From a virus: 64,000 nt of DNA. The stretch's first letter is position 1; each line of letters begins with the position of its first letter. Under the pieces are notes generated by a model. That model was not told the DNA's origin. It ran no database searches and was given only the letters and a program-made list of their open reading frames with translations. The stretch lies in the IMG/VR virus record IMGVR_UViG_3300036781_000230, positions 15,072 through 79,071 of that record. One strand, given 5' to 3'. Position numbers and translations under genes: made by a program. Shown in pieces: positions 2,293 to 55,903 of this stretch.

Positions 2293-3726
2293 ATGGGATC
2301 ATCTACTTTGCCGCTGTCTATTATCGCCGATGTAACTGTAGTGACATCTTCACCTCAGGTAGCGGCTCCGACCTTTAATATAGGTTTGATTATTGGTCCT
2401 TCAACTGCTATTCCATCGTATGGAGCAAATTCAAGAGTTCGTACGTATCTTGCAGCTACGTACTCTACAGCTATGTTAGCTGACGGATTTACTACTGATG
2501 ACCCTGAGTTTATTTGTGCTCAGATTTATTTCAGTCAATCTCCTCAACCTCAGACACTTCAAATTGGTCGTCAAGATTTAACTGCTATTGCTGCTGCTGC
2601 TCCTGCTGCTTCAGAAGGTGGTACAGGATATGTGGTTGGAGATATCGTAGGAGTGACTCAATCGAGTGCCTCTTTCGGTGAGCTTCGAGTATCTACGATT
2701 GGTACCAACGGCGTAGTTACTGCGCTTACTACAGTTGCTGGCAATCAGGGAACGGGTTATTCTGTAGCTTCTGGCTTGGCTACAACTGGAGGTTCCGGTA
2801 CTGGACTTCAGGTAGATATTACCGCTATTGGAGAAACTCCTCTTCAATCTGTTCAAGTTTGCAGAAATGTTAGTGCTTTGTGGTATCCTTGCATGGTTAC
2901 CACCGCTGTCGACGCTGACCACATTGCTATTTCAGCTTGGGTATTGTCTCAAGTCGGTACAATCTACTTTGGTACTTCCTCAGCTGCTACCGTTCCTGCT
3001 GGAACTGCCGGTAATCCTTTTCTTACCATGTATGGCGCTGGCTCTAAGAGAACCTGGATGCAGTGGGCTACGACGCAAAGCGGACTCATCCCAACACAAG
3101 CATATTTTGTTGCTGCGGTCATGGGTCAAGCTATGGCTTCAAACACTCAACTTGCTAATTCTGCTTTCACTGAAAAGTTTAGCGGTGGAGTTCCTCTCGT
3201 CGGAGTATTCGTAGAACCCAATCTAACTACCACTCAGATTGCTAATATCGAAGGACAGAGCACTTCGCTTGGCCCCAATGGAAATCTTTATCTAAATTAC
3301 GGAAATTCATTCAATGTGCTTGAACAAGGCACCATGATGGCTCCCGGAGTTTTCTTTGATCAGATTTTAAATCTCGATATTCTAGCTTCTAACATTCAGT
3401 TTGCTATCATGAATCTTCTGACTTCATCTCCGAAGATTCCTCAAACTGACGCAGGTCAGCAACTCTTGATACAAGCAGTCGAGTCCGCTCTTACGCAGTC
3501 TGCTAACACCGGATTTATTGCTTCGGGAGTTTGGAAAGGACAGAATATCCTCAACCAGATTACTCCTGGTATGGCTCTTCCAACTGGATTTGCAGTAGTA
3601 TCTCCTCTTTATAAGACTCTTACTTCTGCTCAAATCCAAGCTCGTCAAGCGCCTCCTATTTATGTGGCTCTTATCGAAGCTGGAGCTGTTCACTTCGTGA
3701 CTATCGAAGTTCTTGTACAGGTATAA
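2293..3726 (+). CDS. Contractile tail sheath protein (DUF3383-like)
   Basis: YFSQSPQP, KIPQTDAG, ARQAPPIY, AGAVHFVTI motifs; strong AAGGAG RBS. Confidence 0.9.
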   Translation: MGSSTLPLSIIADVTVVTSSPQVAAPTFNIGLIIGPSTAIPSYGANSRVRTYLAATYSTAMLADGFTTDDPEFICAQIYFSQSPQPQTLQIGRQDLTAIAAAAPAASEGGTGYVVGDIVGVTQSSASFGELRVSTIGTNGVVTALTTVAGNQGTGYSVASGLATTGGSGTGLQVDITAIGETPLQSVQVCRNVSALWYPCMVTTAVDADHIAISAWVLSQVGTIYFGTSSAATVPAGTAGNPFLTMYGAGSKRTWMQWATTQSGLIPTQAYFVAAVMGQAMASNTQLANSAFTEKFSGGVPLVGVFVEPNLTTTQIANIEGQSTSLGPNGNLYLNYGNSFNVLEQGTMMAPGVFFDQILNLDILASNIQFAIMNLLTSSPKIPQTDAGQQLLIQAVESALTQSANTGFIASGVWKGQNILNQITPGMALPTGFAVVSPLYKTLTSAQIQARQAPPIYVALIEAGAVHFVTIEVLVQV

Positions 3727-3878: not shown

Positions 3879-4322
3879 ATGGCTACAACCTATGCCTTCA
3901 AGAGTGTTGTCGGGGCTTTTGCTGATCCTGACGTTGGAAGTTTCCCTTTTGCAGGACAAGAGGGGGTCAAGCATATTACGATTGGAAATGCTACAGATCG
4001 TACTGTGCACGACACAGCTGCTGATGGTACTGTCATGGTATCCTATGTTTCAGGTGCTTCTGGTTACGCTGAAATTGAATGCCAACAGAATAGCACTCTT
4101 AATCAGTTTTTAGTTAACTGGGCAAATGCTAAGTTTACAGAGAGTGAAAATGGTGGAGCAGCTAATTTTGCTGCCGCTGTTCTTAAACTCGTAGATCTTC
4201 TATCTGGAGCCAACCATACTCTTACAGGAGTGTCTCCTCTGAAGATTCCAGATAAAGCTTATGGTCCTTCAGGAGCTTCTGTTACTTGGCGATTGATGGC
4301 AGCTCAAGTTGTGACTCAGTAG
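3879..4322 (+). CDS. Tail tube protein (DUF3277-like)
   Basis: 147 aa after sheath; TYAF...ADG...QNSTLNQFL...KIPD...W motifs. Confidence 0.85.
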   Translation: MATTYAFKSVVGAFADPDVGSFPFAGQEGVKHITIGNATDRTVHDTAADGTVMVSYVSGASGYAEIECQQNSTLNQFLVNWANAKFTESENGGAANFAAAVLKLVDLLSGANHTLTGVSPLKIPDKAYGPSGASVTWRLMAAQVVTQ

Positions 4323-7366: not shown

Positions 7367-7792
7367 ATGAGTTTACAGCTTATACCTCTTACTAATTCTC
7401 CAAATCAACAATTCACGGTGTTACTACAGGTTGACGGAACTCCATTAACTTTAAATTTAACTATTAAATTTAATGAGATGTCTGGCTACTGGATACTTTC
7501 TATTTCAGATGTGAATAATAATCTACTAGTAGATTCTGTTCCAATGATATGCGGTAGTTATCCAGCAGCTAATCTTCTTCAACAACAAAGATACTTGAAT
7601 ATTGGTAGTTGGTATATAATCAACGTAGCTAACGGAACCCCAACTGGGGGTTCTGGAATAGGCTATGGTCAAGGTGGATATGGTCAAGGACCGTACGGCG
7701 GACAAGCCGGCCAAGGTGGAGAAGACTATCCAGATGCGAGTAATTTAGGAACTGATTTCCAACTATGGGTGGATGATACTCCTAATATTTAG
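7367..7792 (+). CDS. Baseplate plug-type protein
   Basis: IPLTNSPNQQF, NLLQQQRYLNIG, NLGTDFQLW motifs. Confidence 0.7.
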   Translation: MSLQLIPLTNSPNQQFTVLLQVDGTPLTLNLTIKFNEMSGYWILSISDVNNNLLVDSVPMICGSYPAANLLQQQRYLNIGSWYIINVANGTPTGGSGIGYGQGGYGQGPYGGQAGQGGEDYPDASNLGTDFQLWVDDTPNI

Positions 7793-19941: not shown

Positions 19942-19980
19942 GCCCGTACCCTTATCTCATCAATAAGGGTACGGGCTTTT
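19942..19980. terminator. Intrinsic terminator between convergent late and early arms
   Basis: Perfect 14-bp stem GCCCGTACCCTTAT/ATAAGGGTACGGGC followed by TTTT. Confidence 0.85.
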
Positions 19981-19992
19981 GGTGTTTAAGAA

Positions 19993-20250
19993 CTAGTGTT
20001 TAACTAGTGGACTTAAGGGTCTCTGTTTAGCTTTTACTTTTAACATGTTAGCTGAGATTACTTTCTCAACCATATTATTCACGTGTCGAATGGCTCTTTC
20101 ACGGCTTGAGAAAGGTTTTCCTGGAACTCTATCTTTTCCCATAGTTATGAACCATTCGTCCTTGTCTTTTACTTTTCTAATCTCAACTACTTCTCCATCA
20201 AATATAGCAGTAGAGAGTTCTGGATTCACGTGTTTGAATAGGATTACCAA
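19993..20250 (-). CDS. Hypothetical protein
   Basis: ORF colinear with the - strand operon. Confidence 0.55.
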   Translation of the reverse strand: MVILFKHVNPELSTAIFDGEVVEIRKVKDKDEWFITMGKDRVPGKPFSSRERAIRHVNNMVEKVISANMLKVKAKQRPLSPLVKH

Positions 20251-20268
20251 GGTCTTATCTCCGAGATA

Positions 20269-20697
20269 TTAAATGTGACGTGATTCTAATGTAGTTAAAT
20301 TACCAGGCTGGGCGATAATACCTTTGATATCAGGAGCTACATAATCAGGGCCTTTAGGAGTTTTTGTCCCGTATTTCTTGCCCTTTGTAGCTTTTACCGG
20401 AGTCTTAGTCATATTAGACCGATGAACTTCAGTAAAAATTCTATCGATAGGAATACCGTAGGAGATCATAGTACCAACCAACACATAAATAAGATCAGCG
20501 CAGCCATCAGCCATTTCAACAAGATCATTGCGAAGAAATGCTGTGAAGAATTCATTAAACTCTTCCATTATCAAATCTGATCTAAGTTGTTTTACCTCAC
20601 TAGGAACTTCATGATTAGGTTGACTACTTTTCATGTGACCGTACTTTTCGTGAAACTCAAGAACAGCTTTCTCCATGGTTAACTGAGAGACGAGCAT
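20269..20697 (-). CDS. MazG-like all-alpha dNTP pyrophosphohydrolase (candidate dCTPase)
   Basis: LIMEEFNEF, EMADGCADLIYV, EVHRSNMTK, KGPDY motifs. Confidence 0.85.
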   Translation of the reverse strand: MLVSQLTMEKAVLEFHEKYGHMKSSQPNHEVPSEVKQLRSDLIMEEFNEFFTAFLRNDLVEMADGCADLIYVLVGTMISYGIPIDRIFTEVHRSNMTKTPVKATKGKKYGTKTPKGPDYVAPDIKGIIAQPGNLTTLESRHI

Positions 20698-21148
20698 GGA
20701 CTTCCTTTCTATGGTTAATCATCAATTGAACTACTCTATTACTTCCATATCCTACCTGAAGTATGTCTGCGCTATTAAGCCATGGAATTTTAGCTAATGG
20801 ATTATTAGGACGAAGTTGTTCAACATTATCCATAGTAAGAATAGCTGTTTTTCTTATTTCCGGATAATAAATAGCATAAAGAACTAATGTATGTCTACTT
20901 ATCAGTTTACAAACTTCGTATTGTCTTATATCCTTTTTGATAACTTTCCAAGGTTGAATGTAGTGAAAACCTTCAGCTAAAGTATATTCATCTCCTATTT
21001 TAGTCTCTATATATGTAGCTATTCCTGTTAGGAGATGAATGTAGTCTGGGAGACCTAGAGTAGAGCGATCACTTATCTTAAAGATTTTTCCTCCCATTTT
21101 TCTTTCTATGTCACTTGAGAGCGCTCCACCAAAGGTTGCTTCTAGCAT
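20657..21148 (-). CDS. PD-(D/E)XK nuclease (VRR-NUC/resolvase-like)
   Basis: GLPD...YIETK motif. Confidence 0.65.
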   Translation of the reverse strand: MLEATFGGALSSDIERKMGGKIFKISDRSTLGLPDYIHLLTGIATYIETKIGDEYTLAEGFHYIQPWKVIKKDIRQYEVCKLISRHTLVLYAIYYPEIRKTAILTMDNVEQLRPNNPLAKIPWLNSADILQVGYGSNRVVQLMINHRKEVHARLSVNHGESCS

Positions 21149-21162
21149 CTTACCTCCTAGTA

Positions 21163-22164
21163 TTATTTCTTGATGAGTCTTTCAATCATCGTTTTCACGT
21201 GCTCTTTAGAAGATATGTTCTGATCAAGCCATATTTTCTGTCGTTCAACAATATCAAGATATTGCTTTTCAGTTTCGATATCCTCAAATTTACTAGGCTC
21301 ACCTTGAAAAGCAACGCCCATAACTGCGGCATCCTTCGGATCTGAGTATATGATACTCTCAGCCCAAGCAGCGTTAAGATATCGAGTTCTCCACCATCCT
21401 GATCCAGCAGATGGATAGCCAGTAGATAAGACTCCATAGCTATCAGCAAACAATCGAACAGTGTTACTTTCATTAAGAATCTGAGTTCCTACCATTCGTT
21501 TGTTTCCGACGTATAGAACTGGAATCTTAAAATTCTGTTTCTTCACCCATCGAGTGTGATCTGATAGCGCAGCCATTACCCACTGCCTCTTTTTCTCAAA
21601 AGGGGACGGAACTTCTACTGTAGGATACTTCAGCCATCGACTAGGGTCAACCGTAATGAGTTTAGCTGAGTAATTCTCTCTCATGAGAAATTTATGATCT
21701 CCCCAAGGAAACATAGGAGCGAGCATTGGAGCATTATTTCCTTCACTCGCTTCCATCATCATTTCGAGAGATTCTCGAGTTTTTTCGAGTATCTCAGATT
21801 GGTAAGGAAAGTTCTTATAACTTAGATATTTTCCCCAGCGCTCAAGAGCATATTTTACAGAATCTCCGTATCCACAGAAACTCCAATCATCAGCATAAAC
21901 AGCGTGACGACCTCTCATCTGATCCATCGCATAATGAGTCTCTGGTACACGGCCAGAAGTCATCGAACTAAGTGGAGCAACTCCACAAAAAGCAAAGTCA
22001 TAAATCGTTGGAAGTTCTTCTCCAATTTTTACTTTCTTTCGATGTACTACGTGTCCCATAGAGATTAGAATTTCTTCCAGGAGATATGAGAAAGTTATAT
22101 AGTCTCCCTGTACTCGATCACTACCGAACATTCGAGTAGTGTATCCGGTAATTAAAATCCTCAT
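21163..22164 (-). CDS. DNA glycosyltransferase (T4 beta-glucosyltransferase-like, GT-B fold)
   Basis: End-to-end resemblance to T4 BGT from memory (MRILI..., EILISMGHVV, YDF, VYADD, WWRTRYLNA...IIYSD, DIVERQKIWL); lies beside a dCMP-type TS homologue. Confidence 0.65.
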   Translation of the reverse strand: MRILITGYTTRMFGSDRVQGDYITFSYLLEEILISMGHVVHRKKVKIGEELPTIYDFAFCGVAPLSSMTSGRVPETHYAMDQMRGRHAVYADDWSFCGYGDSVKYALERWGKYLSYKNFPYQSEILEKTRESLEMMMEASEGNNAPMLAPMFPWGDHKFLMRENYSAKLITVDPSRWLKYPTVEVPSPFEKKRQWVMAALSDHTRWVKKQNFKIPVLYVGNKRMVGTQILNESNTVRLFADSYGVLSTGYPSAGSGWWRTRYLNAAWAESIIYSDPKDAAVMGVAFQGEPSKFEDIETEKQYLDIVERQKIWLDQNISSKEHVKTMIERLIKK

Positions 22165-22376
22165 GCTTTAGCCTCCACCTTAAGTTCAGGTATATATTTC
22201 TCAATTCTATTGGTGATAACTACTCCACATTCTTCCCATGTGGATCTGTAGTTCTGTTTAGATTTAACTAAAAATTTAACATCTTTCTCAGCTACGCTAA
22301 GACTTCCCAATTTTTCATTAAGATGTCTAGCTACTATTTCTCTTAGTTCTTTTTCGGTTAATTCTACTGTAACCAT
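22161..22376 (-). CDS. Hypothetical protein
   Basis: ATG 22376 just after upstream stop; colinear. Confidence 0.55.
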   Translation of the reverse strand: MVTVELTEKELREIVARHLNEKLGSLSVAEKDVKFLVKSKQNYRSTWEECGVVITNRIEKYIPELKVEAKA

Positions 22377-22378
22377 CA

Positions 22379-22693
22379 CTATTCTCCATCTATATTGACT
22401 TTGATGTTTACCCCATCTAATTTTCCAATAACAGTCAGTGGAGGGGTACACAGTTCCTCGAGAATACTCCTTGATCCACTAACAGTTACTGTACAGCTTT
22501 TAAATCCATGGTCGAGTTGAACTTCCACTTTAATTTCCTGAAATTTAGGTCCTAGTGAATCGTCCAAACATTTCAAATAGAGTTGTCTAAATTCTTCACA
22601 TCCCTTATTAGTAAGAGGAATTCTAGTTGGAGCCCAGTCCAACACATAAATTACTTGCTTCTTGATTTCTTCGGTTATTTCTTCGGTTGTCAT
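22379..22693 (-). CDS. Stand-alone tail sheath C-terminal-domain homologue
   Basis: RIPLTNKG and PPLTVIGKLDGVNIKVNIDG match sheath KIPQTDAG and PPIYVALIEAGAVHFVTIEV; ATGA overlap with polymerase stop. Confidence 0.6.
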   Translation of the reverse strand: MTTEEITEEIKKQVIYVLDWAPTRIPLTNKGCEEFRQLYLKCLDDSLGPKFQEIKVEVQLDHGFKSCTVTVSGSRSILEELCTPPLTVIGKLDGVNIKVNIDGE

Positions 22694-24591
22694 TCTGTAC
22701 AAGCCCTCCAGTTTGGTCCAGTTTCTACATCCCAAAGTAATGGCACGCGACACGGGATACGGCTATCAGGAGCTTCGAGAAGTTCTTTAAAGTTCTTCTT
22801 ATGTTTCGGATCCTTATCTATATCACCATCAAGTTCATCATGCACCGTGGCCCGTAAATCAATAGTGAGAAATTTACGATTGTTATAAGTTTCTAAGAGT
22901 TTAACTTTAAGAGTTTCAGCAGCCGTGCCCTGAATGATTTTATTAAGAGCTGAGTGTAGACGTTCTCCAGTAGGAAATCTACCTCTTCTCTTCATGATAG
23001 TTTTGACATAACCGCGATTTTTAGCTATTTTCATAGCTTCTCTAGTAAGAGCTTGAGCTTCAGGAAATTTAGTGTCATACTCTTTACTAATTGCAAACGC
23101 TTTGTGGATTCTGCAATCCATGTGGTGACTAGCTTTATTCCACTGATCTTTAGGATCGCACCCGCACTGACAACTTAAGCCGAGTTTTCTAGCCAACTTC
23201 GGAACGCCCATCGTATAGAGTTTTCCGAAATTATTATGTTTGGCGTCCTTTCGCTTTTGACCCAACATGTTTGCGACGAGTTGATGAAAATCCATCGTTG
23301 GGTCGGCATTATATTCTTTGATAAGTCGCTCTGACTTAGAATAATGAGCGAACCACCTGAACTCGATTTGACTAGCATCTGCAGAGACATATATCTTTCC
23401 TTGTACTGGAATCATGAGTTCTCGAACAATCCAATCTCGAATGAACTCTTCTTCTAGTTGACTCTCTACTTTCATTACTTGCTGAATATTGCATCCACCA
23501 CTCGAAGGTGCAGCTGACGCGTATCTTCCAGTTACAGTTCCAAAATCGTCATTCCTTAACTGATGAAGACTGTACCTCAAGATATTATCGCGGTCAAGAT
23601 TTTTCAGATACTTCTTCAAATACTTCGTATTTAGAGAATGGAGTTTTCTAGCGGCAATAACTAGTCGTATGCAAGGGTGCTCAACTCTTGAAAGATATTC
23701 TTCCTCAAATGTTTCTCCTCCACCTAGCTCTTCTTCTCTTTTAGGAATAGGAATACTATAGAAGTTAAACAACTTTCGAAGATCATTTCCAGAATTTGGA
23801 TTGATTTTCAACCCTGTAGTTCGGTGAAGTTCGAGAATGGCTGCTTGATGAGCTAGTTCAACTTCATGAACCCAGCGTTCAAGCTTAGGTCTATCAATGA
23901 GAGCTCCTGCTCTCTCCATAGCGCAGGTAGCATAGATGAGATCATCTTCCAGATTACATACATCTGTCAAATCTTGCTCGTCTATAAGTTTTTGTTCTAC
24001 TAAGTCTAGTTGAAGATGAAGGTAAGCATCGTATTCCGCGTACTCTCCAACTTCACTAGCGGCCATGTCTGCGATATTGCTTTTATCAGAATCGTGAGGA
24101 GATAACTCTGCTTTCTGTTCTCCCAGAAATTCAGTAGCTAGAATATTGAGATTAAATCTTCGACGATGCTCATCAAGTAAAGCCGCTTTGAAAGCCGGGT
24201 CATGAACCTTAGCTCCTATTTCTTCTAAATCTAATCCCCATGTTTTAGTTACATGAACATCAGCTTTTGCGTTAATGATACTTAGATGACGACCTTTAAG
24301 TTCTTTCTTAGCCCATCGTCTTACAGAATTCTCATCTATATTCCCGCCTCCCCGATGTCCATGAGGAAGATAATACTTCTTAAAATCTGGAGTACAAAGA
24401 GCTATTCCTACTTGCTGAGCAGTGAGAATGTTCTTGTCACTAAACGTAAACTCAGTATCGAAACCGAAATGTAGATCGAGAGGATACGCCGAAAGGTCAG
24501 GCAACTCTTGAGGAGCTGTCCAACCTGACGGAGCATGGTGCCCAGAGAACAAATTTCCTACCATACCTGGTTTAGGAAGGATTTTCGGCAT
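22690..24591 (-). CDS. polA: DNA polymerase family A with 3'-5' exonuclease domain
   Basis: FDTE, YAEYDA, TGR, DASQIEFR, RKDAKHNNFGKLY, VHDE motifs. Confidence 0.95.
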   Translation of the reverse strand: MPKILPKPGMVGNLFSGHHAPSGWTAPQELPDLSAYPLDLHFGFDTEFTFSDKNILTAQQVGIALCTPDFKKYYLPHGHRGGGNIDENSVRRWAKKELKGRHLSIINAKADVHVTKTWGLDLEEIGAKVHDPAFKAALLDEHRRRFNLNILATEFLGEQKAELSPHDSDKSNIADMAASEVGEYAEYDAYLHLQLDLVEQKLIDEQDLTDVCNLEDDLIYATCAMERAGALIDRPKLERWVHEVELAHQAAILELHRTTGLKINPNSGNDLRKLFNFYSIPIPKREEELGGGETFEEEYLSRVEHPCIRLVIAARKLHSLNTKYLKKYLKNLDRDNILRYSLHQLRNDDFGTVTGRYASAAPSSGGCNIQQVMKVESQLEEEFIRDWIVRELMIPVQGKIYVSADASQIEFRWFAHYSKSERLIKEYNADPTMDFHQLVANMLGQKRKDAKHNNFGKLYTMGVPKLARKLGLSCQCGCDPKDQWNKASHHMDCRIHKAFAISKEYDTKFPEAQALTREAMKIAKNRGYVKTIMKRRGRFPTGERLHSALNKIIQGTAAETLKVKLLETYNNRKFLTIDLRATVHDELDGDIDKDPKHKKNFKELLEAPDSRIPCRVPLLWDVETGPNWRACTE

Positions 24592-25042
24592 TCCACTCCT
24601 TCCCAGCTATTTCAATGTAGCAACCTCTTTCAGCCAACACAAGAAGTCCTTTCTTATCTGCGTAATCTTCAGCACAGATAATTACCTCAATTCCTGTATT
24701 AGCTAGCATTTTAGCACATACAAAACAAGGAACACAGCTACAATAGATAGTATGAGCCCTGTTAAGATCATTACACTGAAGAAGAGCGTTTTGTTCAGCG
24801 TGGACTGCCATACATGATGATGTATCCCCTGGCATATCAGAAGCACCCAAACAAGGAACATCGATACAGTGGTCAAAATCCTTTGGTACACCGTTATACC
24901 CTGTGCTAAGTACATGACCTTCCTTATCCGTTATAATTGCTCCTACTGCTCTTCTAATACAAGTACTACGAGCTGCTACTAGCTGTAACATTGCAAGATA
25001 GTACTCATGCCGTTGTAAACGATCTGGTCGAATTGAGTCCAC
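24572..25042 (-). CDS. dCMP deaminase
   Basis: RSTC, STGYNG, HAEQNA, PCFVC motifs. Confidence 0.92.
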   Translation of the reverse strand: MDSIRPDRLQRHEYYLAMLQLVAARSTCIRRAVGAIITDKEGHVLSTGYNGVPKDFDHCIDVPCLGASDMPGDTSSCMAVHAEQNALLQCNDLNRAHTIYCSCVPCFVCAKMLANTGIEVIICAEDYADKKGLLVLAERGCYIEIAGKEWNAENPS

Positions 25043-25895: not shown

Positions 25896-26849
25896 CTATT
25901 TTTTCATGGAGTCGAGGATGAGGTCAGACATAACTCGAGGATTATGCCCCTTAAATCTCTTAAGGAAAGACGGGTGAGGTAATCGATCTACTTTAAAAGG
26001 TAAGTCAGTATTTCCATCAGTCTGTTTCCAGAACCATTCTTTTGCTTTATTACCTAGAAGAAAAATTCTTTTCAGATGTGGAAGGTTACACAGAATAGGT
26101 CCTAGAGAATGTTGTTCCCCAGTAACTGAATAAGCATTAGACAAGGCCAACTGGGACTCTTTGATGCCAGCGAATTCAATAGCTTTGTTAAGGTATCCGC
26201 TAGAACCGTTTAGAGCAAAAAATGGTATATCAATAGAATCGTGATTTGGTTGGTCACCTATAAAAAGATACTCAGCCCAGTGAGTGCCAATAGTTCCATT
26301 CGGTAAGACTACTCTCTCGGTGGATAGAGATTCTCTGTGAATTCTCTCAGGAGCATCTTTGGTATAGTCATACATCATGCCCATATTTCCAAAATGATAC
26401 ATCCACTCAGCATATTTCATGAAAACTTTTTCCCACATAACCATTGGGCTTAAGGTTTGATTCTTAACTCCCTTAAGGTAGTCATCTTTTTCTTTTAGTT
26501 TTTCTTTATAGTTTTGTCTAGCAATATCTATATTAGGCATAACTATATACATGTTAATGTATTTTGATCGATGAAGTCTATAGAATAGATTTTGACCTTC
26601 TATTCCTAGATTGTCTTTTCCTCTGGCTATAGGGCCATATATTCTTTCTCCGAGCCATAACCGGTCGTGAACTACAGGTTTTGGAGATCTTAAAGAGTCA
26701 TCAATAATTTTCAAGTAGTGAGCTACTTGATCTACCCCAGGTGAAGGTGGACCTTCATGACGATAGTCAAAGCCCATGTCCACGAGCTTTTTAGCTATTG
26801 TAGTTTTTCCTCCACCATCCGGTCCTTCAAGAATCACAATTCTACCCAC
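25896..26849 (-). CDS. dNMP kinase fused to uracil-DNA-glycosylase-like domain
   Basis: EGPDGGGKT P-loop and HDR; C-terminal FIGDQPN, SGYL, LLGNKA, LPHPS. Confidence 0.75.
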   Translation of the reverse strand: MGRIVILEGPDGGGKTTIAKKLVDMGFDYRHEGPPSPGVDQVAHYLKIIDDSLRSPKPVVHDRLWLGERIYGPIARGKDNLGIEGQNLFYRLHRSKYINMYIVMPNIDIARQNYKEKLKEKDDYLKGVKNQTLSPMVMWEKVFMKYAEWMYHFGNMGMMYDYTKDAPERIHRESLSTERVVLPNGTIGTHWAEYLFIGDQPNHDSIDIPFFALNGSSGYLNKAIEFAGIKESQLALSNAYSVTGEQHSLGPILCNLPHLKRIFLLGNKAKEWFWKQTDGNTDLPFKVDRLPHPSFLKRFKGHNPRVMSDLILDSMKK

Positions 26850-52279: not shown

Positions 52280-52648
52280 TTACGCTCTAGCATCTAATAT
52301 TCCTTTCCAATAACCCGCAGACTCATTAAAATAAGTATCGTATATAGTTCTTAGATTAGTACTAAATTTATCATCATATGATCTAGATAAAGAATCATAA
52401 TAAGACTGTACACTTATTTCTTTTCCAAATAGTGTCTTAATTGGAACTTGGTATTGACTGGCTAAAAATACTGCAAAGTCATAAAATTTCTGGGCCATTA
52501 TCCAGAGAAACTGATTGTCTGATGTGATAGGTCCCGTCACCTGTAATCCAGTTTCCTCAAAAGATGTTTCGGACGCAAGCGCCTTTGAATTGACGCAGAC
52601 GGCGATGGTGGTGGCCGCAAAGAGTCGGAGAAATGTTCTACGTTCCAA
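52280..52648 (-). CDS. Tat-signal protein carrying baseplate-J N-terminal-like fragment
   Basis: MERRTFLRL...ALA leader; SDNQFLWIMAQKFYD vs own ADYQWISALALKLND. Confidence 0.55.
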   Translation of the reverse strand: MERRTFLRLFAATTIAVCVNSKALASETSFEETGLQVTGPITSDNQFLWIMAQKFYDFAVFLASQYQVPIKTLFGKEISVQSYYDSLSRSYDDKFSTNLRTIYDTYFNESAGYWKGILDARA

Positions 52649-53032: not shown

Positions 53033-53481
53033 TTTCCACTAAAACCAGGAGGTACCGGGGCACCACACAAAGAACACGTATTATAATCTTTCGCGTCCCA
53101 TTCTCCGAGTAGATATTTATCGTAGAAGTTAGTATTGTGAGGAAATTCTACGATTTCTGGAAGAGCGTAAGAACGCATAGCAGATTCAAGATCTTTCTTA
53201 GTGATATTTGGATTATCTTTTACTAGCATTACCTCATCTGGTATAAAGTATGGCTTATCTCGTTCTTTAAACCAAGCTCTGACTGCCTTAAGACTAGTTT
53301 CATTAGTAAGCCACTTATCTTTACGCCAACCATTAAAGTAAATAGTCCAATACTTACCTACACGTTTGGCTACGTATGTCGTGCCCCATCCCATTCTAAA
53401 CTCAAATCGGCGACTCGTCATCTGGACGACGGTGCTGACTGGACGAGGCGGTATAACTAGATTTACATTAACTATTCTCAT
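53011..53481 (-). CDS. Protein carrying terminase-like peptides plus Zn ribbon
   Basis: DNPNI and FYDKYLLGEW vs TerL DNPNI and YYQRYILGLW. Confidence 0.55.
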   Translation of the reverse strand: MRIVNVNLVIPPRPVSTVVQMTSRRFEFRMGWGTTYVAKRVGKYWTIYFNGWRKDKWLTNETSLKAVRAWFKERDKPYFIPDEVMLVKDNPNITKKDLESAMRSYALPEIVEFPHNTNFYDKYLLGEWDAKDYNTCSLCGAPVPPGFSGKCGQPCL

Positions 53482-53750
53482 TTTTCTACTATGACTGAAA
53501 TGGTGATGTGAGTCTTAGCCATTATCCTCTCATAACATTCTTTGAACATTTGCTGAACACGTTCATTACCTGCATCGGTGTAGGGAATTTTTTCTCCTGA
53601 GTTTAAAGCAATTAATAGAGAATGCTGAAGATCTGCAGCTAAAGCCTCAAGACCTTCCTCAGTTAGTTTACCTGGAATTTCTATGTAGATAGGTGAAGCA
53701 ATACGAGCATTTTTCTGTTGCTCTTTAAACTTTCGCTCATCTTCAGTCAT
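53478..53750 (-). CDS. Miniature, rearranged tail sheath C-terminal-domain homologue
   Basis: KIPYTDAG, ARIASPIY, HITISVIV all match own sheath motifs. Confidence 0.7.
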   Translation of the reverse strand: MTEDERKFKEQQKNARIASPIYIEIPGKLTEEGLEALAADLQHSLLIALNSGEKIPYTDAGNERVQQMFKECYERIMAKTHITISVIVEK

Positions 53751-54204
53751 ACGGCTCCGGTAAAGCTTTTTGAAGTTTACTGTCTAATTCAAATATCTCA
53801 GTTAAAGAAGGTCCATTAAATTCTATCTGATCAAAGTTTGTCTGATCATATTCCATTAGTACTCCCATAGGTCTGTAGCTATCAATTACCTGCTTAAGCC
53901 TACTCATTAGAGGAGGACTAACATAAGTAGGAACCGTAACTGTAATCGAAAACTTTTCACCGTTTTCTACGACTAACCAACTATCCCCAAGTAACCAAGT
54001 GAGCATTCGGGTCATTTGGTTTTGCCAGGGAATATATCTAGTAGTCAGATACTCATTAAATGGAATACCTACTGGATCTTCAAACATCCACTCAGATTCT
54101 TTTTCTACTATAGGTTCCAAAGGCTCCAGTAACTCCTTTGGAGCGATGGTAGCTATAGCAGCTACTCCAGCAATCTGCTTAAAGAATCCGCGTCTCGTAG
54201 TCAT
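53743..54204 (-). CDS. Tat-signal protein carrying DUF2612-like baseplate wedge fragment
   Basis: MTTRRGFFKQIAGVAAIA leader; W...LVVEN...RPMGVLMEY vs own W...IIIDN...RPQAVQYNY. Confidence 0.55.
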   Translation of the reverse strand: MTTRRGFFKQIAGVAAIATIAPKELLEPLEPIVEKESEWMFEDPVGIPFNEYLTTRYIPWQNQMTRMLTWLLGDSWLVVENGEKFSITVTVPTYVSPPLMSRLKQVIDSYRPMGVLMEYDQTNFDQIEFNGPSLTEIFELDSKLQKALPEPYD

Positions 54205-55164: not shown

Positions 55165-55446
55165 ATGGACTGCTGTGTGTTGAGTTCTGAGGAAGTTGGA
55201 CAGTTAAAGCACTACAAAATTCTTCCTAATCATGAGAATCATCACCACATCCCATGTGAACAAGCTATTCTCGGGCTTAAAGATGAGGATTACGAACTCA
55301 TTAGTGGATTTAACGGTCGTCAGTATCTGACCAAAACTAAGTTGTTTTTCCTGCGCAAAGTACCTTCTGGTGGTAAAGGAGCTATTCCTATAATTCAGAG
55401 AGTAGTCAGTAACCACTTGAAGCATCTGATGCCGATCAAATACTAA
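55165..55446 (+). CDS. Hypothetical protein
   Basis: GGAG RBS; colinear. Confidence 0.55.
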   Translation: MDCCVLSSEEVGQLKHYKILPNHENHHHIPCEQAILGLKDEDYELISGFNGRQYLTKTKLFFLRKVPSGGKGAIPIIQRVVSNHLKHLMPIKY

Positions 55447-55459
55447 GGGAGGTTCAGCT

Positions 55460-55903
55460 ATGTCCCCTTCGAATAGATGGCAACCTGGACAGAGTGGAAA
55501 TCCTTCTGGAGCTCGTAAAGGTCCTCGTAAGAATAATCTCTTAAGTCCTGCTTACAAAGCAATTCTCGGAGATATTCTAGATCAAGAAACAAAAGAAGAA
55601 TTCAAGATGCCTGACGGTTCTACTTGGGCTGATCTTATTGCGAAACACGTAGTTAAACGAGCTGTAGGTAAAGTTCCAGATGAGAAAATTTGCTTTAGGG
55701 CTATTACTGAGCTTCGAGAGACGACTGAAGGAAAAACTCCTGAGAAAGTAATTGCAGCTGGAAGCAATGAAGAACTTGCTAATTTGGCTCGGATCATGCA
55801 GGGAGACCCGGCACCACCTGAGGGAGACGAAGCAGTTATTCAGGACGATGAGGTTACGGAAAATGCCGAAGCTGATTTTCATAGTTCGGCAAATGAGGAA
55901 TAA
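55460..55903 (+). CDS. terS: Terminase small subunit (DUF5681-like N-terminus)
   Basis: WQPGQSGNPSG motif; directly upstream of TerL. Confidence 0.8.
   Translation: MSPSNRWQPGQSGNPSGARKGPRKNNLLSPAYKAILGDILDQETKEEFKMPDGSTWADLIAKHVVKRAVGKVPDEKICFRAITELRETTEGKTPEKVIAAGSNEELANLARIMQGDPAPPEGDEAVIQDDEVTENAEADFHSSANEE

Follow-up and report, generated by a model that had tools for sequence, protein, structure and literature searches.

The C-terminal inner domain of phage tail sheaths, also called the 'handshake' domain or domain I, has been described in several systems. For the Pam3 sheath, passages of PMC9942802 report three helices and two strands and give the domain the role of mediating contacts between hexamers. 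The accounts of the handshake domain in parts of PMC8195476 and PMC10491603 have its sheet completed by strands of neighbouring chains or of the terminator, and a section of PMC6088184 on R-type pyocin places one domain I helix in contact with the tube. The closest described free-standing counterparts are the gp25-like sheath initiators (T4 gp25, TssE and Pam3 gp21), small proteins with a core that resembles the sheath C-domain according to a portion of PMC9942802. Initiators excepted, we found no paper on free-standing sheath-domain proteins.

Here we analyze a 104-aa protein, P0001, encoded in the replication operon of a phage from soil (source record: a 79-kb IMG/VR virus contig, rated complete). 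'The window' below means the whole 64-kb stretch of DNA that was analyzed. Like the initiators, P0001 is small, free-standing and probably related to the sheath inner domain; initiators, however, are baseplate parts that are encoded in the tail module and conserved among relatives, whereas P0001 lies in a replication operon and is dispensable in relatives. The gp25-like family (PF04965) is absent from Pfam scans of P0001, in which no family whatever reaches the gathering score. The probable relationship is instead to the DUF3383-type sheath of the same phage, and it runs through a second small protein of this genome, a 90-aa open reading frame (ORF) that we call the mini-protein.

The gene and its variable slot

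The coding sequence of P0001, taken from the ORF list and its translation, spans positions 22382-22693 of the minus strand and is followed by a stop codon at 22379-22381, which agrees with the gene position given in the first-pass annotation of this DNA. Its ATG (22693-22691) overlaps the TGA (22692-22690) of the DNA polymerase gene immediately upstream, and the shared ATGA can be read from the sequence at 22690-22693 (minus strand). A GGAGG lies 11 nt upstream of the ATG, within the polymerase gene, and only 2 nt separate the stop codon from the start of the next ORF. The gene had been called translationally coupled to the polymerase; the overlap is indeed present, and coupling is what it suggests. 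There are two homologues, P0003 and P0004 (105 and 104 aa, with 66% and 52% identity), both with the same start methionine. An alternative GTG form of P0001 would be 124 aa long, but both homologues begin at the ATG form instead. Because there are two homologues of the same length with 46 columns invariant across all three members, and because of the ATGA overlap and tight packing, P0001 is a real gene. Its GC content (0.372) is similar to that of the neighbouring genes.

The polymerase is a family A enzyme (PolA) of 633 aa at 22690-24591 on the minus strand (PF00476, E = 7.2e-44; phrog_17, 2.5e-74). Immediately downstream of P0001, and in the same variable slot, is a 71-aa ORF (22161-22376, minus strand; phrog_20484, 3.3e-5), the end of which overlaps the start of a 333-aa gene. 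The operon also encodes a dCMP deaminase, a thymidylate-synthase homologue, a kinase with a weak UDG-like tail and a MazG-like pyrophosphohydrolase. The ORF at 25896-26849 (minus strand) begins as a P-loop kinase (phrog_761, 7.4e-10) and continues into a tail with weak similarity to the uracil-DNA-glycosylase superfamily (PF03167, 0.006, below cut-off). A promoter and terminator scan finds nothing above shuffles within the operon. At 19942-19976 (plus strand), where the lysis genes (plus strand) and the replication operon (minus strand) converge, a 14-pair GC-rich hairpin is followed by a run of T, and this is probably a shared terminator.

PolA is found at 65-80% identity in six related phages (L002-L006 and L008), and the slot after it is different in all six. 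Between PolA and the 333-aa gene there is a 77-aa gene in L002, no ORF of at least 50 aa in L003, a 126-aa gene in L004, and genes of 139 and 69 aa in L008; in L005 the 333-aa homologue follows PolA directly, and in L006 a homologue of the 71-aa ORF comes after PolA along with three other ORFs. None of the six has a counterpart of P0001 in this slot. The interval is a swap site that holds unrelated small genes in each relative (L002-L006, L008); a C-terminal module of about 70 aa recurs there in L002, L006 and L008, and a cysteine-rich protein of about 70 aa is found there in L006 and L008.

Further searches give the same picture of a rare gene. The three members were combined in an alignment and profile (A1), which is thin (Neff 1.6). 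A search with A1 of the relatives' whole records returns no match in any of five; four of these five are at least 93% complete and the match in the phage's own genome served as the positive control, and such an empty answer from a record search proves little on its own. Two protein libraries, one of 5.8 and one of 1.8 billion sequences, contain only three members of the family. A profile search of the 5.8-billion library adds none, and viral, metagenome and genome contigs contain no further ones. Megablast of positions 20000-25000 against phage records gives no match, and tblastn of P0001 against phage records gives one at chance level (E = 0.9, in a glutaredoxin gene). PADLOC reports nothing. 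Since the slot differs in six relatives, the gene is missing from five of five records and the family has only three members, P0001 is a rare accessory gene that shows the pattern of a dispensable one. Its slot, bounded by PolA and the conserved 333-aa gene within the operon for replication and nucleotide metabolism, is hypervariable.

These observations also bear on the idea that P0001, whatever its ancestry, works with its operon neighbours, for instance as a small partner to PolA or to the 333-aa enzyme, and has nothing to do with tails. Such a partnership would suit a gene that overlaps PolA by ATGA and is packed tightly against the 71-aa and 333-aa genes, in an operon that encodes PolA, the deaminase, the thymidylate-synthase homologue, the kinase and the pyrophosphohydrolase. 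The six relatives, however, have both PolA and the 333-aa gene and lack P0001, so neither enzyme needs it, and the polymerase is full length without it (380 of 381 positions of PF00476 are matched). We therefore consider this role very unlikely. That P0001 is a split-off C-terminal piece of the polymerase is ruled out by the same PF00476 match and by polymerases of the same length in relatives without P0001.

The sheath, the mini-protein and similarity searches

The tail sheath gene (477 aa, DUF3383 type) is at 2293-3726 on the plus strand (PF11863 DUF3383, 3.3e-44; phrog_205, 1.6e-67), that is, about 19 kb from P0001 and on the opposite strand, as first reported. In a profile search, its relatives in the PDB include the Pam3 sheath (8hdr, 4.4e-12), which is the closest solved structure, and 7kh1 (3.5e-8). 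The tail genes also include one for the tube protein at 3879-4322 and one at 7367-7792 (plus strand) for a baseplate 'plug' protein of the Pam3 gp18 type (PF22479, 1.7e-11); from the latter, the tail is of a minimal, Pam3-like design.

The similarity to the sheath was originally proposed from two blocks of aligned residues, the first of which pairs P0001 3-46 with sheath 361-403 (10 identities in 44 columns). The search suggested along with it, using the DUF3383 profile, is negative: P0001 matches neither Pfam DUF3383 nor the PHROG sheath families (205, 9590 and 38059) at E <= 1. Sheath profiles likewise find nothing in P0003 and P0004 at E <= 10 (Pfam) or <= 0.1 (PHROG), with the sheath and the mini-protein as positive controls for the curated profile searches. 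BLASTP of P0001 against the sheath gives E = 14. In a Smith-Waterman comparison with sheath 356-477, 83 of 1000 shuffles score as high as P0001.

More sensitive comparisons can be made with a custom hidden Markov model (HMM) of 111 sheath C-domains (the region of sheath 340-477), and with the 564 stop-to-stop frames of at least 40 aa in the window as the search space. This sheath-C HMM ranks the P0001 frame 16th of 564 (E = 10), and adding the mini-protein to the profile raises P0001 only to 4th (E = 2.5). With hhalign, the match of A1 to the sheath-C profile has a probability of 2.0% (P = 0.024), and its score is equalled or exceeded in 3 of 300 column shuffles. When A1 is compared by hhalign with the 564 frames, the sheath as a single sequence ranks 6th, with P0001 6-46 opposite sheath 365-404. 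Both hhalign and hmmsearch independently arrive at the register of the first block, and all three family members align at identical HMM positions. Among 1098 control frames, taken from the related loci, the A1 HMM places the relatives' sheaths at ranks 11, 150, 332 and 488. By itself, then, the direct link between P0001 and the sheath is weak and not significant.

The mini-protein is encoded at 53481-53750 on the minus strand (53478-53750 with the stop codon), in an early region of small genes, and is absent from five relatives. Among the 564 frames it is the one further significant match to the sheath-C HMM besides the sheath (E = 1.6e-7), and it doubles as a positive control for this approach. 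In curated profiles it matches phrog_9590 (1.3e-6), phrog_205 'tail sheath' (0.016) and Pfam DUF3383 (0.042, below cut-off). A search of its own genome, covering the entire record, yields no match other than itself and the sheath (3.2e-4); in related phage records only sheath ORFs are matched, in four of the five, and in viral contigs the single match is a full-length sheath. Residues 34-82 align with sheath 361-409. The R-x-A-P-P-I-Y piece that comes late in the sheath is found at the N-terminus of the mini-protein, before the helix-loop-helix, and thus the order is rearranged; the protein ends after the first strand. These significant matches indicate that the mini-protein is a stand-alone piece of the sheath C-domain. 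Flanking its neighbourhood are two small early-region proteins (53743-54204 and 52280-52648, both minus strand) that begin with twin-arginine-like signal sequences, in which an RR pair is followed by a hydrophobic stretch; in Pfam the former has only a weak, sub-threshold match to Phage_Mu_Gp48 (E = 0.01) and the latter has none.

When A1 is searched against the 564 frames with hmmsearch, P0001 itself is followed by the mini-protein (E = 3.9e-4, 15.8 bits), and the next ORF is at 0.038. This last is a 43-aa frame (55413-55541, plus strand) that matches residues 75-102 of the P0001 family; it overlaps two real genes and was taken as chance. With hhalign, the mini-protein again ranks 2nd (score 31.7, Prob 72.6%, P = 3.2e-5), well above the next frame (19.6) and the background (9.95 +/- 2.6). 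A profile search of the whole 79-kb record finds only P0001 and the mini-protein at E <= 10, the latter at 1.0e-3. Smith-Waterman scores against the mini-protein are 49 for P0001, 60 for P0003 and 51 for P0004, compared with about 25 +/- 4.4 for shuffles, and for each of the three members none of 2000 shuffles reaches the score. The alignment pairs P0001 3-59 with mini-protein 34-89, within which hhalign pairs 24-59 with 54-89 (P = 3.2e-5). The similarities of the mini-protein to the sheath and to P0001 fall on the same region, approximately its residues 34-82. BLASTP of P0001 against the mini-protein shows no alignment at E <= 100, presumably an effect of seeding, as the Smith-Waterman alignment contains no strong seed words. 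Overall, the link has an E-value of about 1e-3 to 1e-4, as obtained with a three-sequence profile against a single sequence.

Could the resemblance be due to chance, or to convergence on a short helix-loop-helix motif, with P0001 an unrelated orphan? Every curated profile search with P0001 is negative, direct tests against the sheath are at noise level, the family has three members and a thin profile, and the pairing of P0001 with the sheath was picked post hoc in the first-pass annotation. These points would carry more weight if the mini-protein were not the single outlier among the 564 ORFs of the window and, scored separately, above all 1098 control ORFs, the best of which reaches 6.3 bits with A1. 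The window contains just two sheath-domain proteins, and the mini-protein is one of them; no shuffle matches the score of any of the three members, and an independent tool finds the mini-protein with E = 1e-3 over the whole genome. We regard chance or convergence as quite unlikely. The evidence argues for a significant, if indirect, sequence link of P0001 to the DUF3383-type sheath C-domain via the mini-protein. Residues 3-59 or so of P0001 are likely to be homologous to the sheath core, as a strongly diverged copy. The claim made originally for the first block thus holds in part: the similarity is above chance mainly by way of the mini-protein as intermediate, but the direct signal is weak.

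Residues of P0001 compared with the mini-protein and the sheath

The part of P0001 that aligns with the mini-protein, and through it with approximately sheath 361-416, is encoded at 22517-22687 (minus strand) and is predicted to consist of a helix, a loop, a second helix and a strand. The corresponding sheath region, which would be the one copied, is encoded at 3373-3540 (plus strand). The helices of P0001 are assigned from residue patterns and a crude periodicity script, which is uninformative for the sheath profile. The loop, RIPLTNKG (residues 24-31; 22601-22624, minus strand), is the counterpart of KIPQTDAG in the sheath (381-388) and KIPYTDAG in the mini-protein (54-61). The conserved loop of the sheath domain, which joins two helices, has the form K-[IV]-P-x-T-D-x-G. 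In the P0001 family the loop reads R/K-I-P-L-T-N/G-x-G, with I25, P26, L27, T28 and G31 invariant in the three members and with N or G in place of the sheath-type D. The pattern IP.T..G is present in 59 of the 111 sheaths and in 4 of the 564 ORFs of the window; the strict form, [KR]IP.T..G, is present in 55 of the 111 sheaths.

Within sheath 361-416, 20 columns are at least 80% conserved among the 111 sheaths. At these 20 columns the P0001 family is identical in 5 and similar in 10, and the mini-protein is identical in 9 and similar in 14. The helix-loop-helix register of the DUF3383-type inner domain (PF11863; Pam3 gp13, 8hdr; 7kh1) is retained in P0001, along with the counterparts of sheath P383, T385, G388, I368 and L376 and hydrophobic positions. 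On the other hand, P0001 has other residues in place of Q369, Q384, D386, A399, G407, G412, W414 and G416, the terminal hairpin is not demonstrable, sheath residues 1-355 have no counterpart, and there is no significant direct match.

P0001 and the mini-protein have the helix, the [KR]IPxT(D/N)xG loop, the second helix and the strand in common, and both are small and acidic (pI 4.9 and 5.4), encoded outside the tail module and absent from five relatives. They also share features that the sheath lacks: a Glu two positions past the motif Gly, a Cys aligned with sheath A399 and an I-x-V strand. From their sequences, the two look like one stand-alone lineage. They differ in that the mini-protein has the N-terminal 'R-A-S/P-P-I-Y' strand piece of the sheath, which P0001 lacks, whereas P0001 carries 45 extra C-terminal residues and the mini-protein stops after the first strand. 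P0001 is in the replication operon and the mini-protein in the early small-gene region, and sheath profiles match the mini-protein directly but not P0001. In its helix-loop-helix-strand similarity, its small size and its location outside the tail module, the P0001 family has the properties of a stand-alone sheath-core mini-protein.

The remaining C-terminal half (residues 60-104; 22382-22516, minus strand) includes the second block, in which P0001 83-103 was paired with sheath 453-473 (6 identities in 21 columns, TPPLTV.../APPIYV...). The pair of strings exists, but the similarity is no better than chance: against the sheath C-domain profile the C-terminal half scores 8.5, compared with 9.6 +/- 2.0 for shuffles, of which 139 of 200 reach the score, and its best local register is off the proposed one by 4 residues. 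Comparison with the whole sheath gives a score that 51 of 150 shuffles equal or exceed. A resemblance to the 'SPIYIEI' piece at the N-terminus of the mini-protein (residues 1-33) was suspected by eye and rejected, with 643 to 1057 of 2000 shuffles reaching the score. A PDB profile search lists no sheath and only chance-level matches (an acyltransferase at 0.007, transaldolase and GnsA). The C-terminal half thus has no detectable relation to anything searched (sheath C-domain, whole sheath, mini-protein 1-33 and PDB). A swapped-hairpin (AbrB-like) reading of residues 53-104 was dropped, there being no supporting Pfam match. The ESM Atlas model of P0003 is poor (pLDDT 0.48) and its structural neighbours are meaningless (highest query-side TM 0.45); none is annotated as a sheath, and the Atlas contains neither a model of P0001 nor a usable feature match for P0001 or P0003.

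In principle, all 104 residues could represent a complete stand-alone sheath C-terminal domain, in which 52-72 and 83-103 would be the strands and terminal hairpin, the elements that in sheaths complete the sheet between subunits, diverged beyond detection. With permissive settings, hhalign produces a co-linear MAC alignment of 102 columns (P0001 1-103 with sheath 359-477) in which TPP falls opposite APP, but its confidence is about zero in the C-terminal half. The lengths are similar (104 aa in P0001 and about 118 aa), and the order of elements judged from residue patterns is equal (helix, helix, strand, strand, helix, PP, hairpin), the periodicity script agreeing for P0001 only; the three helices and two strands reported for Pam3 in the passages of PMC9942802 would also fit. 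The shuffle results just given place the C-terminal half under the shuffle mean for the sheath C profile and at chance for the whole sheath, and P0001 retains none of the conserved sheath residues G407, G412, W414 and G416. A complete domain therefore seems rather unlikely, and we continue with the reading in which only the first part of P0001 is derived from the sheath. The earlier description as a 'second sheath mimic' is fair for residues of about 3-59, counting the mini-protein as the first, but is unproven for a full C-terminal domain.

Possible roles and implications

How might such a protein act? The first 57 or so residues of P0001 would be a diverged copy of the conserved core of the sheath C-terminal inner domain. 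The statement that the gene is expressed before the structural genes draws on operon position, from which P0001 may be expected to be produced together with the replication genes. Since it lacks sheath residues 1-355, P0001 would be unable to build a sheath. Molecular mimicry is the likeliest way for it to act: it would show the surface of the sheath core to a usual partner of that core, whether the linker arms of the sheath, the tube, or some sheath-recognizing factor of the host or of a rival, and so serve as a non-polymerising cap or decoy. This mechanism is tentative, and we think it somewhat doubtful. The reading as a whole, in which an accessory gene carries a diverged copy of the sheath core, is paralogous to the mini-protein and acts as a non-polymerising mimic, is in our judgement evenly balanced between right and wrong.

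A more specific and more speculative suggestion is that the two diverged, free-standing copies of the sheath core, of which one lies in the early region and the other, in the polymerase operon, is fused to a new module of 45 residues, are made before the tail and serve in conflict. They would either be decoys for a host immune sensor that detects the conserved sheath core, or cap the growing chains and so poison the tails of rival phages in the same cell. We consider this improbable; if it were true, phages in general would use small early genes to mimic virion proteins, a strategy that we found described in no paper.

If the similarity is due to chance, P0001 is an ordinary orphan in a variable slot. 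If the relationship to the sheath is true, the core of a structural protein has, on two occasions in a single genome, been copied, trimmed and placed in an operon of non-structural genes. Genes of this kind could be regulators or saboteurs of tail assembly, or could blind a host sensor, and either would make them a new class of small phage effector.
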